Shown: positions 8,422 through 14,990 of the stretch, in pieces
Layout: each line of letters opens with the position of its first letter
Numbering within the stretch: position 1 is the stretch's first letter
IMG/VR virus record: IMGVR_UViG_2660238423_000033
Reading direction: 5' to 3' (one strand)
DNA length: 14,990 bases
Source of the DNA: a virus
Taxonomy: Duplodnaviria; Heunggongvirae; Uroviricota; Caudoviricetes
Notes under the pieces: generated by a model
Database searches by the model: none
Told to the model about the DNA's origin: nothing
What the model saw: only the letters and a program-made list of their open reading frames with translations
Made by a program: the position numbers and the translations under genes

Positions 8422-8832
8422 TCAGAACGGAATACCGTCACCGTAAGGGTCATCGCCTCCCGCTGGTGGCTGATTACCCTGTGTGCCTGTGGTTTTGCGT
8501 CTGTTCCCGCCAGGAAGTGCCGCACGGGCACTGATTACGCTGTCTGCAATAACCTGATAACCCTGCCGCGTTTCCCCATTCTGTCCGGTCCACTGGCTGA
8601 CCTGCATCGTGCCGGATACGCTGGCAACGTCGCCTTTTTGATGTTTAGCCAGGAAGTCGGCCTGCTTACCAAATGCGATGACCGATAGCCATAACGTCGC
8701 CTGCCCATCCTGCGCCTGACTACATGGCAGCGATACCGCCATACGCGCCAGCGTCATCGGTGTACCCTTGCTGGTCTGTTTTACCTGCGGGTCGTCCACC
8801 AGCCGCCCGTAAGCTGCTATCTGTGCTGTCAT
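8422..8832 (-). CDS. ssb: single-stranded DNA-binding protein (short, 136 aa)
   Basis: OB-fold core WLSVIAFGKQADFLAKHQKGDVASVSGTMQVSQWTGQNGETRQGYQVIADSV, a Gly/Pro/Gln-rich linker and the canonical acidic C-terminal tail ending DGIPF. GGAGAGGTGG precedes the ATG. Confidence 0.8.
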   Translation of the reverse strand: MTAQIAAYGRLVDDPQVKQTSKGTPMTLARMAVSLPCSQAQDGQATLWLSVIAFGKQADFLAKHQKGDVASVSGTMQVSQWTGQNGETRQGYQVIADSVISARAALPGGNRRKTTGTQGNQPPAGGDDPYGDGIPF

Positions 8833-9107
8833 GATTCCACCTCTCCGGTTTTAACGTTGATGGTTGTTACCTGTTCCGCTTCGGCAATCTCCCGCTCTGT
8901 CAGCGTGGCAAAATTTGCCGCCGTCGTGGTCATGAATGCGCTTATCAGTTCGGGATGTGCTTTCGCGTATCCTTCCCCCGCGTGGCGGTCTATCGTTCTG
9001 ATTGCCACCTTTAAAGCGTGCTCTGTCATGTCTAACGCGCGATATTTCGGTTCTGTTCTGTCTCTGCGTTTTTTGAGTGATTTATTAAATTTCCCTGAAG
9101 TGTGCAT
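8829..9107 (-). CDS. hypothetical protein (92 aa), first gene downstream of the origin
   Basis: ATG at 9107 with GAGGGGG upstream; its stop overlaps the ssb start (ATGA). No family recognised. Confidence 0.45.
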   Translation of the reverse strand: MHTSGKFNKSLKKRRDRTEPKYRALDMTEHALKVAIRTIDRHAGEGYAKAHPELISAFMTTTAANFATLTEREIAEAEQVTTINVKTGEVES

Positions 9108-9149
9108 ATTTATTTTTACCCCCTCGTTTAAAAAGTTTTGAGTTGTGCC

Positions 9150-9385
9150 TCCCCTTGTCTACCTTATCTACCTTAGTGGCCCTCATACCAGTAATGGCGC
9201 GGCTTTCAGCTGGGTAGAGTGCTTTTATCCACTATCTACCCCGTGTCTACCTCCCTGTCTGATTCAGGTAAAATCAGGTAGAGAGGGTAGATAGTGGGTA
9301 GACAGTAAAAAAAGGCTATCTACCTAACTTAATGCACTGAATTAAATGTATTTTTCTTTACTCAGGTAGACAGGGTAGACAGCAA
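9150..9385. repeat. replication origin: iteron array (GGTAGACA and variants, both orientations) around an AT-rich core
   Basis: At least 11 copies of GGTAGA(C/T/G)A or its complement TGTCTACC/TATCTACC (for example 9156, 9166, 9233, 9244, 9278, 9287, 9298, 9317, 9366, 9375), with an AT-rich stretch at 9330-9360. Begins 14 bp after the pri-rep stop. Confidence 0.65.
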
Positions 9386-9395
9386 TTACAAAAAA

Positions 9396-11150
9396 TTATA
9401 AAAACGCGTCGCACTCGTCTGTTGTTATTGCGTTAGTCTGCGTTACTCCCTTAACTTTCCGCGTAATATATTCATGTCCGTAAACTTTCGCGGCTGGCTT
9501 CATAGCCTTGCCAAAGTCATTTACGTTTAGCGGTTTGCTCCTGCCTGCGTACGCCATAAACGCCAGATAGACGCGGTAAAGGCTGTTTCTGGTCGTGTAC
9601 TTCACTGAATCGCCACCGCCGCCCATCATCAGGCCGCGTGCTTCCTCCAGAAAATTCAGGAACTGGCAAAACTCAATAACCGGATCCGTCTGTTGCTTTA
9701 TTGCCAGAGCTTCATCACCGTCACGCTGTTCCAGTAGTAAAGCCCGTGCCTTCTCAGGGTCGGTAAAGTTCGCCAGCAATCGGCGGATAATGACAGGGAT
9801 TTCAGCCGCGATCTTTTCCGGTAGCTCCCTGTCTTTTTCGGCCTCACTGACGATATTGTCGAAACGGAAAATCACGCGACGACGTGCCACACCTCCGGCC
9901 CGTTCGGTGAATATCATCGGGTTATTGTTGGTCGCCAGCACCACCGCCCTGATTACAGCCGTGAAACGCTTTTCGTATTTCGGGTTAATTTCCACGGGGT
10001 CACCGCCCGTGATTTTCTTGATGCCCGTTCCTTCGCCTGTATATTTCGGCTGGTCAGCCAGGACGATAAGACGACTCCCGACAACCTGCGCACGTCCACC
10101 AGCATCATCAAGCGATGTCATTTCAGCGCTTACCGTGTTCTGTTTCCCTGCCAGAAGGCTGGCTATGTGCGTGAATGTACTTTTACCGCTCCCGCCGTCT
10201 CCGGTGGCCTCAATAAACATCTGCCAGTCGTACCGGTTCGCCATAATCATGTACAGCGCGGCACATATACGCATCATCTTGCGCGGGTCTTTTCCGGCTG
10301 CGTGCTCAAGCCATTTATGAAAGTTTGGCGCGTTATCGCGGATGTTCTCCCCTGGTGCTGGTGGCGTGTACTCAATGCCGTTGTGCGTGGTGATCCAGTT
10401 CTCCGGCGTGTGCGGGGAAAATTCCCCCGTTTTCAGGTCAAGCGCACCATTGGCGAACGGCAGCAAATCGCCGGACGGCTCGCCCATTGGTTCGGCAATA
10501 ACTTTTAACGCTTCCACGGCGTTATTGATTACGCGCTTGCTGAAAGTGGCCCTGTGCTCTGAATAGATCGCCACCATTTCGCGGCTAAGTTCCATTGTGC
10601 TGACCGGACACCATACCCCGCCGCGCCATACGTGAACGATTTCACTTTCAGGATGTACGCAAACGCCATCAAAGCGATCGGCAAGCAGCTGCGCGCGCTC
10701 ACTGTCCGCCATCTGCGAAAGTTGCGCCTTTTGCTTTACCGGAAGCTCAATGACCAGACCATCAGAAAGATTCTGGCGCTCACGAGCCAGATATTCGCGC
10801 CAGTTCTCCACCTTCTGACCGTGCATACCATCAGGGTAAAAATTTGCATCCTGTACGCCTGCCGCCGCCAGCTTCTGACCAATCGCCTTTATCATTACTG
10901 GCGCAAGATATCCGGCCCTGAATATGCGCACGGATTTTCTGCCTTCCGGCACAATTTGCAGCTTATCCAGTTCGGATAACTGCTGCTCCCCAAGCCACAC
11001 AGGAGGCTCATTATCTCCGGCCATACGCGCGTCATGTTCCTGCCATTGTTTTGCGTGTGACCAGGCATCACTACCCGCAAAAATAATGACTTCAGTTTCT
11101 TTGTGTTTTATGCCGCGTGACTGCTGTTTTACGTTCGGTGCCAGTTTCAT
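9396..11150 (-). CDS. primase/replication initiator (Pri-Rep), P4-alpha/D5-like with a Walker A NTPase
   Basis: 584 aa; Walker A motif ATGDGGSGKST mid-protein, with the N-terminal half consistent with a primase region. ATG at 11150 has AGGGG upstream and overlaps the upstream stop. Confidence 0.85.
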   Translation of the reverse strand: MKLAPNVKQQSRGIKHKETEVIIFAGSDAWSHAKQWQEHDARMAGDNEPPVWLGEQQLSELDKLQIVPEGRKSVRIFRAGYLAPVMIKAIGQKLAAAGVQDANFYPDGMHGQKVENWREYLARERQNLSDGLVIELPVKQKAQLSQMADSERAQLLADRFDGVCVHPESEIVHVWRGGVWCPVSTMELSREMVAIYSEHRATFSKRVINNAVEALKVIAEPMGEPSGDLLPFANGALDLKTGEFSPHTPENWITTHNGIEYTPPAPGENIRDNAPNFHKWLEHAAGKDPRKMMRICAALYMIMANRYDWQMFIEATGDGGSGKSTFTHIASLLAGKQNTVSAEMTSLDDAGGRAQVVGSRLIVLADQPKYTGEGTGIKKITGGDPVEINPKYEKRFTAVIRAVVLATNNNPMIFTERAGGVARRRVIFRFDNIVSEAEKDRELPEKIAAEIPVIIRRLLANFTDPEKARALLLEQRDGDEALAIKQQTDPVIEFCQFLNFLEEARGLMMGGGGDSVKYTTRNSLYRVYLAFMAYAGRSKPLNVNDFGKAMKPAAKVYGHEYITRKVKGVTQTNAITTDECDAFL

Positions 11151-11911: not shown

Positions 11912-12143
11912 AACCACCCCCATTTTCACAATCAGCAATCAGGATGGCTTTAGCCTCATTCAGCGCCATATCAGCACTAAGTTGCATAACCGCCAGCGAA
12001 TGAGGAACGAAAGCCCCGGCATATTCTGTTTCACTGGTGTCGTGCTTATGCGCCCTGTCAGCAATAACAGAAATATCAATCAGCGCATGCATTAGCGTTA
12101 TGATGGCTTCGGCGGCTGCGTCCGGACGGGTGTTATTGCACAT
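11904..12143 (-). CDS. hypothetical protein (79 aa)
   Basis: Strong AGGAGGT 6 nt upstream of the ATG at 12143. No family recognised. Confidence 0.55.
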   Translation of the reverse strand: MCNNTRPDAAAEAIITLMHALIDISVIADRAHKHDTSETEYAGAFVPHSLAVMQLSADMALNEAKAILIADCENGGGYA

Positions 12144-12339
12144 GGCACACCTCCTGACGAATACGGGCAGCGAATACCATCACGCAGCCAGCCGGAGATT
12201 GCTGGCGTGCTTCCTGTTCGCTGGTGGCCTCAATGGTAATCACGCGCGGTTGTGCCGTGCTCAGGGCGATAAAACGCCAGATGTATTTATTCAGGTTGTG
12301 CGAGTCCCGCCCTTGCGGGTGTATGGTATGATTTCTCAT
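12133..12339 (-). CDS. hypothetical protein (68 aa), first gene of the leftward operon
   Basis: Internal ATG at 12339 of the 339-codon track ORF, with GAGG 5 nt upstream. Only this C-terminal part has a ribosome-binding site; the remainder of the long ORF is rejected. Confidence 0.4.
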   Translation of the reverse strand: MRNHTIHPQGRDSHNLNKYIWRFIALSTAQPRVITIEATSEQEARQQSPAGCVMVFAARIRQEVCHVQ

Positions 12340-12529
12340 AGCTACCTCGATACTTTCGCTATCGTTGGTGGTTAGACGCCCTGCATGTGTGCCACCACTG
12401 CGGGGCGTTGTTGTTTGGTGCATCGCACCATTCGTTTTTAACCTATCAGTAAGTGAATCGCACTTCAAGTCTTTCTCTGAAATTTTTTTTGTGTATACTG
12501 AATCGCACCAACTTAGAGAGGATTCAGTA
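12340..12529. promoter_or_regulatory. divergent promoter/operator region between the leftward operon and the plus-strand RHH gene
   Basis: Plus-strand candidate -10 TATACT at 12494-12499 with a TG just upstream. Direct repeats TGAATCGCAC at 12454-12463 and 12499-12508, plus a related CATCGCACC at 12421-12429. Confidence 0.4.
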
Positions 12530-12709
12530 ATGGCAACAGGTTCAACAAATAATAAGTCGCAACAGTTAAATGCCAGATTCCCGCATGATGTTGTTGCAGA
12601 CTTAGAAAAAAATTTAGATGAAGGTGAAAGCAAGGCGCAATTTATAGTTACTGCCGTTAAAGGTGAGATCAAACGCCGCCAGCGTCGCAAGGCCAAAGAG
12701 CAGGAGTAA
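12530..12709 (+). CDS. ribbon-helix-helix (Arc/Mnt-like) DNA-binding protein, 59 aa
   Basis: QQLNARFPHDVVADLEKNLDEGESKAQFIVTAVKGEIKRR aligns by eye with the Arc repressor strand-helix-helix (QFNLRWPREVLDLVRKVAEENGRSVNSEIYQRVMESF). GAGAGGA precedes the ATG at 12530. Confidence 0.5.
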   Translation: MATGSTNNKSQQLNARFPHDVVADLEKNLDEGESKAQFIVTAVKGEIKRRQRRKAKEQE

Positions 12710-12766
12710 CCATCACCAGCGCCGTGGTGTGAGTAACTACGGCGCATTGCTATGCAGGACAACACA

Positions 12767-12940
12767 ATGACCGATAAAGAATTGACCAAAACATTATCAC
12801 CGGCACGGAAAAGACGGCGCAGAAAGATAGAACATGAATCAGAAAGATTCGCGCCATGTGCTTTTGCCCTTGAGCAATTCCTTAAAGAGTACAGGGAAAA
12901 GCGCTCATTGCAGGTATGGCAACGAACTGAACCAGACTGA
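12767..12940 (+). CDS. hypothetical small basic protein (57 aa from the ATG at 12767)
   Basis: MTDKELTKTLSPARKRRRRKIEHESERFAPCAFALEQFLKEY; AGGA 7 nt upstream. Co-oriented with the RHH gene and upstream of the plus-strand terminator. Weak call. Confidence 0.3.
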   Translation: MTDKELTKTLSPARKRRRRKIEHESERFAPCAFALEQFLKEYREKRSLQVWQRTEPD

Positions 12941-13035
12941 TTGCATTGCCCACCAGCCTGATAGCGGCTATCATCCCCGTGCTTATGTTTGGGATCACAC
13001 ACACAAACGGCGCAGCGGGTTATCTGTTCAGAAAG

Positions 13036-13063
13036 GCGGCTCCATTTCGGGGCCGCTTTTTTT
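13036..13063 (+). terminator. rho-independent terminator ending the plus-strand cassette
   Basis: gcggctcc-atttc-ggggccgc, an 8 bp stem with one G-U pair, followed by T7 (13057-13063). Confidence 0.6.
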
Positions 13064-13209
13064 ATGCCTGAAAAACCCCAATTTTGTGGTTTTCCAGTCT
13101 CACCAGGGCGAACGAATCCCCGCCCACGTTCTGGCGTATATTCAATCTTCATGGTTATAGCTCTGTGTTCAGATGATTGATGTGTGGCGGCTGTGTGCCG
13201 CCAGCGTGA

Positions 13210-13398
13210 TTAATGAACTGCCTTGCAGCTATCCTTCCAGGCCAGAACCTCGGATAAAGACCAGCCAACGGAACGACCGCCAAGTTTACGACGTGATGGG
13301 AATTGTCCGGCCTTTTCCAGGCGGTAGCGGCATGAGCGGCTAAGGCCTGTTAGCTTTTCGCATTCTTTTTCACGTATAAACCGATCAGTGCTTAACAC
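13210..13398 (-). CDS. alpA: AlpA-family transcriptional regulator / excisionase-like protein
   Basis: 62 aa; EKECEKLTGLSRSCRYRLEKAGQFPSRRKLGGRSVGWSLSEVLAW matches the AlpA family. The start is GTG at 13398 with AGGGGG 6 nt upstream. A hairpin without a U-tract (tggcggc-tgtgt-gccgcca, 13185-13203) lies 7 nt downstream. Confidence 0.85.
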   Translation of the reverse strand: MLSTDRFIREKECEKLTGLSRSCRYRLEKAGQFPSRRKLGGRSVGWSLSEVLAWKDSCKAVH

Positions 13399-13772: not shown

Positions 13773-14990
13773 TTATTTTCTTCTGGCTACTGGTAGCGTG
13801 GTTACGTTTTCATGTGTTCCCGCCAGTATCCCTAACCGCTCCGTCCACATATCCAGCGCATTGCGTTTAGCATCCAGATAACGGGAATGATTATAAACTC
13901 GCTGCATTCCTGGCATCTGATGACCTGTAAGCTGCTCCACGACATGCGGATCAACGCCTAAATCGTTCAGCATGGTTGTAAAGGTGCGCCGGATGTCATG
14001 CAGTGACCAGTGAGGATGATTAAGCCTCCTGTGCGCTAATCTTCCATACTGCGATACGCTGGCCTCCTGTTTCGCTTCCCCCAGCAATAAGCCCGTGTGC
14101 CTGTTCTGCTCCACCAGCTGCGTGACGAACGGCAGGATCGCTTCCGGTATGGGCCGGAATATTGCGACCTTCGTTTTGCTGTGCTCCTTCGGAACGGTCC
14201 ATAGCATTTCCGTAAAATCCCACTCCCCGATCTCCGATAGCCTCAGTTCTACCGTCCTGGCTCCGAAGACAATCAGGAGGCGGATTAACGCGACGTAGTA
14301 AGGGGAAAATATTTTTTTGTCCAGTGCCTGCAATAATTCGCCAAGTTCTTTGTTACTTAAGACACGTTCGCTTATATCCGGTTTTTTCCCAACGTCCGCC
14401 ACGTTCAGATCGTCCAGAACGTTGCTGATTGCATAGCGCCGCCTACGGCAGAACTTAAGCGCCTGTTTGCACGCCTGTAGCACGAATCCGGCAGTAACAG
14501 GCGTTCGCTTTGCCACCTGGTCAAAACAGGCCAGCCAGTGCCGTAGCTCGCATTTATCCAGCGGCATAGCACCAATCTGCTGTATTACGTGATTATTAAG
14601 TCGCCTTTTCAGGGCGATATAATCCACGCGGTTTTCCTTTACGTAATACTCAAGCCAGTAGGTGAGCGCATCGCCAACCGTTACGGGCTTTAACGCTTCC
14701 TGTACGGTGTAATTCATCTCATGACGTGGATTTTTCCCCTCAGCCAGCCATGTGCGACACTGTGCGGCTTTTTCCCTGGCTGCTTTCAGGCTCAGATCAG
14801 GATAACTTCCCAGCTTAATGCGTTCGGGTCGTGTCTCCCTTCCCGTTCCGGCCCTGTATGTGAAATACCAGGTCAATTTCCCTGATGTTAAATATTTCAC
14901 GCTCAGGTTTCCGCCATCACTATAAAACGTGTTTTTCTCCGCTGGCTTACCATGAAGTTTCCTTAGCAAGGTATCGCTCAGTTTGTTCAT
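13773..14990 (-). CDS. int: tyrosine site-specific integrase, P4 family
   Basis: 405 aa; N-terminal arm-binding domain (FYSDGGNLSVKYLTSGKLTWYFTYRAGTGRETRPERIKLGSYPDLSLKAAREKA) and a C-terminal catalytic region (HDIRRTFTT, LTGHQMPGMQRVYNHSRY carrying the catalytic Tyr). The ATG is the last three bases of the window. Confidence 0.95.
   Translation of the reverse strand: MNKLSDTLLRKLHGKPAEKNTFYSDGGNLSVKYLTSGKLTWYFTYRAGTGRETRPERIKLGSYPDLSLKAAREKAAQCRTWLAEGKNPRHEMNYTVQEALKPVTVGDALTYWLEYYVKENRVDYIALKRRLNNHVIQQIGAMPLDKCELRHWLACFDQVAKRTPVTAGFVLQACKQALKFCRRRRYAISNVLDDLNVADVGKKPDISERVLSNKELGELLQALDKKIFSPYYVALIRLLIVFGARTVELRLSEIGEWDFTEMLWTVPKEHSKTKVAIFRPIPEAILPFVTQLVEQNRHTGLLLGEAKQEASVSQYGRLAHRRLNHPHWSLHDIRRTFTTMLNDLGVDPHVVEQLTGHQMPGMQRVYNHSRYLDAKRNALDMWTERLGILAGTHENVTTLPVARRK

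Follow-up and report, generated by a model that had tools for sequence, protein, structure and literature searches.

A probable replication origin of the EcCICFT073 type in a capsid-forming phage satellite of Escherichia coli O26:H11

Introduction

The closest described system to the locus reported here is the replication origin of EcCICFT073, a phage-inducible chromosomal island (PICI). Plasmid maintenance dependent on both pri-rep and ori was reported for this island by Fillol-Salom et al. 2018 (ISME J, PMC6092414); rep was required for maintenance at the restrictive temperature, and loss of ori lowered it significantly. In the Staphylococcus aureus pathogenicity islands (SaPIs), the Rep proteins are hexameric, self-loading superfamily 3 (SF3) helicases, and their C-terminal winged-helix domain reads iterons located directly downstream of rep around an AT-rich region (PMC9371898). 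Binding and melting of the ori by these proteins need no ATP (PMC9371898). The DNA analysed here is a stretch of 14,990 nt (IMG/VR record IMGVR_UViG_2660238423_000033; the whole stretch is called the window, and coordinates refer to it). It is a capsid-forming PICI (cf-PICI), a phage satellite, located in the chromosome of E. coli O26:H11 and inserted in tqsA. A field of short repeats at 9156-9381 is very probably the replication origin of this island. The feature is already known, as it is a PICI origin of the EcCICFT073 type.

Identity with the EcCICFT073 origin

The window was compared with the CFT073 stretch that holds EcCICFT073 (NC_004431.1). The Pri-Rep proteins are 99.5% identical. The intergenic regions behind pri-rep have equal length (288 nt) and are identical in 272 of 288 nt (about 94%), and none of the 16 substitutions falls in a GGTAGA core. 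All iterons are at the same positions, and the flanking genes are also the same (DUF4222, pri-rep, ori, orf, ssb, perC). The islands differ in that EcCICFT073, integrated elsewhere, belongs to the cos-type PICIs, whereas the island in tqsA carries its own HK97-type capsid and terminase module. The replication module of a classical PICI is thus reused nearly unchanged in a cf-PICI of an enterohaemorrhagic O26:H11 strain.

Mapping of the published primers showed which DNA had been tested. In the Delta-ori construct, the reverse primer stops 4 nt beyond the pri-rep stop codon (L006 3980-4000, equal to window 9393-9412). That of the pri-ori construct lies within the opening ~23 nt of the following gene, so that this construct has the whole intergenic region. 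From these positions, the published ori is exactly the homologue of window 9108-9395. Autonomous replication from rep and ori was shown experimentally for an allele with 94% DNA and 99.5% protein identity, and is predicted for the window. The replication experiment proposed in a preliminary description of this DNA, which was made from the sequence alone and had missed that the origin was known, has in effect already been done on the near-identical allele. As the rediscovery of a published origin, the field as first submitted adds little. No later dissection of the ori of an E. coli PICI was found in the literature search.

Iteron field

The motif GGTAGAYA has nine exact matches in the window, all of them at 9156-9381; 0.40 would be expected, and none of 200 shuffles reached nine. 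The hexamer GGTAGA has 12 matches (3.5 expected window-wide), 11 of which lie within the 222 bp of 9158-9379. The only GGTAGA outside the field is an isolated match at 14248, and in the whole window no GGTAGAYA occurs outside it. A chance origin of the repeat field is excluded. Together with GGTAGAGA (9277) and GGTAGAGT (9213), the nine octamers make 11 strong iterons, five on the minus strand (9156, 9165, 9233, 9244, and 9317) and six on the plus strand (9213, 9277, 9286, 9297, 9365, and 9374). Two more iterons are decayed (9225-9232 and about 9256-9263). The extended consensus is R-GGTAGA-N-A-G. Parts of the field are listed in Table 1 together with the neighbouring genes.

At least 11 octamers in both orientations, directly downstream of a primase/replicase gene, had been noticed in the preliminary description, and this count and position were confirmed. 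Its inverted cluster at 9233-9305 is also present, with 9233-9251 on the minus strand facing 9277-9304 on the plus strand. Its tandem pair exists and ends 14 nt from the pri-rep stop codon (9396-9398), but the coordinates given for it, 9366-9382, were off by one. The AT-rich stretch at 9330-9360, around which the copies were said to lie, is indeed AT-rich and flanked by iterons; it is one of two 40-nt spacers and not the centre of the dyad, which had been overlooked.

Table 1. Coordinates of the iteron field and of the genes next to it
Feature	Position	Strand	Remarks
Distal tandem iteron pair GGTAGATA-A-GGTAGACA (minus strand)	9156-9172	-	Exact mirror of 9365-9381
GC-richer 40-nt spacer	9173-9212		Mirror of the AT-rich spacer; holds conserved block CCAGTAATGGCGCGGCTTTCA
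Single iteron GGTAGAGT	9213-9220	+	Mirror image of 9317-9324
Distal inner iterons GGTAGACA (9244-9251) and GGTAGATA (9233-9240), with decayed copy 9225-9232	9225-9251	-	
Central 25-nt spacer	9252-9276		Dyad centre 9268.5; decayed twelfth iteron ~9256-9263 (TGTCTGAT)
Iteron triplet GGTAGAGA / GGTAGATA / GGTAGACA	9277-9304	+	Start-to-start 9 and 11 bp; completes the proximal six-iteron module
Single iteron GGTAGATA (minus strand)	9317-9324	-	Faces the proximal pair across the AT-rich spacer
AT-rich 40-nt spacer, proposed unwinding element	9325-9364		22.5% GC
Proximal tandem iteron pair GGTAGACA-G-GGTAGACA	9365-9381	+	Start-to-start 9 bp; invariant in 6 relatives
pri-rep, initiator/helicase, 584 aa	9396-11150	-	Pfam D5_N, DUF5906 (SF3 helicase core), C-terminal Pox_D5
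Conserved leader and Shine-Dalgarno (GAGGGGG) of the next gene	9108-9140	-	Invariant alignment block; ATG 9107-9105; outside the iteron field
orf92, conserved protein, phrog_1231	8829-9107	-	Always between ori and ssb
ssb, single-strand DNA-binding protein, replication module	8422-8832	-	Pfam SSB, E 4e-17

Two inverted modules

The field is exactly dyad-symmetric about 9268.5, with five mirror-image pairs of iterons (9156/9381, 9165/9372, 9213/9324, 9233/9304, and 9244/9293). Because these pairs mirror exactly, the field is described as a six-iteron module, M, with the arrangement 2-spacer-1-3, followed by an inverted copy of M. Read in the direction of pri-rep, with > for TGTCTACC, the layout is

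stop -14- >> [40, AT-rich] < [12] > [3] > [1] > [25] < [3] < [12] > [40, GC-richer] < [1] <

A module comprises a tandem pair, a spacer of 35-43 nt, one opposed iteron, 12-17 nt, and three iterons. Only the 40-nt spacer proximal to pri-rep is AT-rich. The G+C content is 19% at 9330-9360, compared with 51% for the whole window. The GC-richer spacer contains the non-iteron block at 9187-9208, which is conserved in all E. coli relatives, those with variant iterons included.

The twelfth iteron is decayed in the window and intact at the equivalent position in relatives L003 and L082. The decayed copy at 9225-9232 reads TTATCCAC and resembles a DnaA box; it is an intact iteron in L002 and L003. With one more nucleotide, TTATCCACT at 9224-9232 agrees with the DnaA-box consensus at 8 of 9 positions. 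A DnaA box was rejected at this site, as more distant relatives have an ordinary iteron (CTGTCTAC) there, and for the same reason TTATCCACT is most likely a decayed iteron.

Relatives were collected by two scans. A scan of genome contigs gave 3 loci, and an alignment-based scan of viral contigs was far more productive, with 79 IMG/VR loci. Both pair-spacer units were found in 70 of these 79. The two spacers differ in composition in all 70: the equivalent of 9325-9364 is always AT-rich, with a mean GC of 0.24, and the GC-richer equivalent of 9173-9212 has a mean of 0.51. The order of the modules varies, as they are face-to-face in the window and back-to-back in the IMG/VR loci L070-L073 (78-80% identical over the aligned Pri-Rep region). 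In the latter, the inverted copy comes first, followed by 87 nt (L072) and then M; within 340 nt after the pri-rep stop, the triplets are outside, the pairs inside, and the AT-rich spacer is distal to pri-rep. M therefore behaves as a rearrangeable unit.

Initiator and covariation with the iterons

Residues 194-432 of Pri-Rep match the structure of the SaPI5 PriRep protein (PDB 7OLA, E 4e-15). For residues 488-579, the match is to the domain by which alpha of phage P4 binds its origin, a winged helix (PDB 1KA8, E 7e-7). The cognate initiator is thus an SF3 helicase with a C-terminal winged-helix domain, as in PICI origins. A structure model of moderate confidence (predicted local distance difference test, pLDDT, 69) gave only weak Toprim-like structural matches.

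The motif of the binding domain is present in one of two variants in 64 of the 79 IMG/VR loci. The variant LNV-N[D/E]-F-G-KA goes with iterons T[G/A]TCTACC (about 87%), and the variant LNV-A[E/D]-F-S-KA goes with C[C/A/T]TCTACC (about 80%). In the window, the motif is LNVNDFGKA at residues ~541-548 (about 9507-9530, minus strand). N543/G546 versus A/S tracks the first iteron base (T versus C) in the 64 loci, and the two residues are candidate specificity-determining residues of the winged-helix domain. In Serratia and Morganella, the genes for more distant Pri-Rep homologues (52-53% identity) are followed directly on their 3' side by a proximal pair of iterons, then an AT-rich spacer, additional iterons, and an inverted pair at the distal end. 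Their iterons differ (TGTTCAC and TGTTCAT), and their binding domains resemble that of P4 alpha. The full two-module layout is present in Serratia, and Morganella deviates in the inner repeats. The iterons are thus specific to the initiator allele, which is again a property of PICI origins.

The cores of the iterons are also conserved. Among six relatives with 64-99% identity over the region, columns of the iteron cores are 97% identical and other columns 77%, figures from kin sequences that are descriptive rather than a strict test.

Comparison with P4, SaPI, and plasmid origins

Phage P4 has an origin-binding domain homologous to that of the island, and its octamer iteron (TGTTCACC) agrees with TGTCTACC in 6 of 8 bases. 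The annotated P4 ori (NC_001609), read in the direction of alpha, is a single M: >> [35, GC 0.17] < [14] > [3] > [2] >. In both systems, an iteron cluster is located directly 3' of the initiator gene. The differences are considerable. The type-1 iteron TGTTCACC of P4 is not used here, as the island has TGTCTACC/TATCTACC. The bipartite arrangement with a distant crr is also missing; ori and crr of P4 are 4.5 kb apart, while the window has one palindromic cluster. The cluster 3' of alpha is crr, composed of direct 120-bp repeats and not of an inverted pair of modules. Furthermore, alpha has Zn-ribbon and Toprim primase domains, which are also present in the Morganella homologue, and neither was recognised in this Pri-Rep. 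In local alignment, the field scored 29 against the P4 ori (shuffle mean 18, shuffle maximum 29), a marginal value that is supporting only, and against crr it was no better than shuffles.

Origins of SaPIs (SaPIbov1, SaPI1, and SaPI5; PMC9371898) are likewise located directly 3' of rep and have 6-12 short iterons in two opposed sets around an AT-rich region. The initiator is of the same kind, a hexameric SF3 helicase that loads itself and has a winged-helix domain at its C-terminus, and its helicase core is homologous (PriRep5, 7OLA). The corresponding features in the window are the position of the field immediately 3' of pri-rep, with the first iteron 14 nt from the stop, and the opposition of the pair 9365-9381 (plus strand) and 9317-9324 (minus strand) across 9325-9364, with nine strong copies on the far side, 9317-9324 included. 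The SaPI iterons differ in being 5-6 nt long and unrelated in sequence, and SaPIs have Gram-positive hosts and divergent transcription. Their AT-rich region is described as central, while here it is one of two symmetric spacers.

Iteron origins of plasmids (pSC101, R6K, RK2, P1, and F type) share with the field the initiator-site repeats beside an AT-rich unwinding element, near the initiator gene. They differ in direct repeats of 17-22 bp, initiators of the RepA family acting as dimer/monomer, DnaA boxes, and loading of the host DnaB. In the window, repeats of 8-10 bp form an inverted dyad, the initiator also serves as the helicase, and neither 17-22 bp direct repeats nor a conserved DnaA box is present.

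Proposed mechanism and alternative explanations

The preliminary description had interpreted the field as an initiator-bound origin with an unwinding element. This interpretation is supported by the domains of Pri-Rep, the AT-rich spacer flanked by iterons, conserved cores versus drifting spacers, the covariation with the binding domain, and the identity with the EcCICFT073 origin. In the mechanism that we propose, induction of the island by a helper phage would lead to synthesis of Pri-Rep, a hexameric SF3 helicase and initiator, which would bind the RGGTAGAYAG iterons directly 3' of its own gene by its C-terminal winged-helix domains. The AT-rich spacer 9325-9364 between the proximal pair and the iteron facing it would then melt, and the helicase would load itself there. 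The SSB of the island and the host replisome would complete theta-type replication of the excised circle. More speculatively, the two inverted modules would probably seat two oppositely oriented hexamers head-to-head, one per module.

It is conceivable, though we put it forward tentatively, that the origin consists of a fixed module of six iterons, present twice in inverted orientation, and that one such module constitutes the whole single P4 ori. The 12 iterons would then be 2 x 6, matching two Pri-Rep hexamers with six winged-helix domains each, and the field would be a fused, palindromic version of the split ori/crr of P4. If so, a head-to-head double hexamer would form on an origin with one meltable side, because the AT-rich spacer is present in one module only. 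No description of this modular arrangement was found in the searchable literature, in which the figure with the iteron map (Fig. 2a, PMC6092414) was unreadable, and this P4-like reading is possibly the one new element here. The finer anatomy, with two inverted P4-type modules, one AT-rich spacer, and the N543/G546 pair, is a concrete and testable model, which bears on the positioning of a self-loading SF3 helicase-initiator and on the mutual compatibility of satellites.

Several points weigh against the explanation preferred here. Deletion of the EcCICFT073 ori gave fewer colonies, not zero (PMC6092414). The AT-rich spacer ranks with the eight 30-mers of lowest stability in the window, yet it is not the least stable. 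Residues 1-152 of Pri-Rep have no Pfam match, and no recognisable primase domain was found in the protein. The statistics of conservation and covariation come from related sequences with few independent events. Finally, we infer binding, melting, and the site of initiation at this locus, and a start elsewhere in the field would be compatible with the sequence.

The residual colonies fit a field that is a cis-acting enhancer or copy-control element, of the type of P4 crr or a handcuffing array, which binds Pri-Rep without being the site of strand opening or start; the crr position of the cluster directly 3' of P4 alpha fits as well. We consider this very unlikely, as a second iteron cluster is missing from the window (the field contains every GGTAGAYA and 11 of 12 GGTAGA), the proximal module is arranged like the P4 ori and not like crr, AT-rich spacer included, and aligns weakly with this ori, and a fragment with pri-rep and the intergenic region was sufficient for maintenance in CFT073 (PMC6092414). 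Operators through which AlpA, PerC, or a repressor regulated transcription of the downstream ssb-perC-capsid operon would also be arranged in inverted-repeat arrays, and the field is located upstream of orf92, ssb, and perC. The scan of 8800-9700 found no sigma-70-like promoter on the minus strand, only one promoter-like site on the plus strand and no terminators, with counts at chance level. As the repeat sequence co-varies with the binding domain of Pri-Rep, and the field travels with the replication module across islands that differ in capsid and packaging modules, an operator function in place of an origin is highly improbable. A dual role, for example in autoregulation of Pri-Rep, is possible.

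The cf-PICIs package their own DNA by TerS, TerL, and HNH. Genes for all three are present in the window, and the field could on this account be the cos or pac site recognised for packaging of the satellite. The field is found as well in EcCICFT073, an island that lacks its own terminase and whose cos was mapped separately (Delta-cos strains, PMC6092414 supplement), and in islands with unrelated packaging modules; in the window it is ~6 kb from terS. A packaging site is scarcely credible on these grounds. Islands whose morphogenesis modules are quite unlike one another carry the repeat field together with the replication module, which argues against a role in packaging or in a late operon.

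Distribution

A match was found in 418 of 5,426 complete E. coli genomes, always on the chromosome, and the replication module is thus common. No match was found in the phage collections searched and only three records in the plasmid collections, so that the replicon is essentially absent from both. An E. coli record of 32.5 kb filed as a non-mobilizable plasmid, CP088587.1, has ori and pri-rep at 17489-17789 with 99.3% identity. This record may represent a PICI that has excised or is replicating, or else an artefact of assembly. Three IMG/VR loci (L083, L084, and L088) encode Pri-Rep with a P4-like C-terminus ending WLP..., and the 340 nt that follow the gene contain no iteron field; the origin of these loci may be elsewhere, as in P4.

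Genes of the island

Gene assignments come from matches to Pfam and PHROGs and from the RefSeq annotation for the identical record (E. coli O26:H11 FWSEC0001, NZ_CP031922). All long open reading frames (ORFs) of the window are on the minus strand, and the 288 nt of 9108-9395 are intergenic between ORFs of 584 and 92 aa. The order on this strand is integrase (13773-14990), AlpA (13210-13398), Icd-like, DUF4222, Pri-Rep, and the repeat field, followed by orf92, SSB, PerC, HK97-type capsid, prohead protease, portal, head closure and connector proteins, HNH, TerS, and TerL. The gene set of the cf-PICI family was described in bioRxiv 10.1101/2022.09.08.507074. As in cf-PICIs of the EcCIEDL933 type, int, alpA, and pri-rep are combined with own capsid, protease, portal, connectors, HNH, TerS, and TerL, without tail genes, in ~15 kb. 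An Rfam scan of the whole window gave no match, and the region is therefore not explained by a known RNA.

The position of orf92 is kept in the annotated relatives CFT073, L002, L003, L004, and L005. Its product has no Pfam or NCBIfam match and may be an uncharacterised replication accessory protein. In the ORF of 339 aa at 12133-13152 (minus strand), only the last ~90 residues match a PHROG family of transcriptional repressors, and there is no Pfam match; RefSeq has a truncated pseudogene within these coordinates. This ORF may be a decayed regulatory gene.

In NZ_CP031922, the island is located between the two halves of tqsA. This gene for an AI-2 transporter is split into two annotated pseudogene halves (L001 899-1042 and 16084-16989), and, being interrupted, it is inactive unless the island excises.
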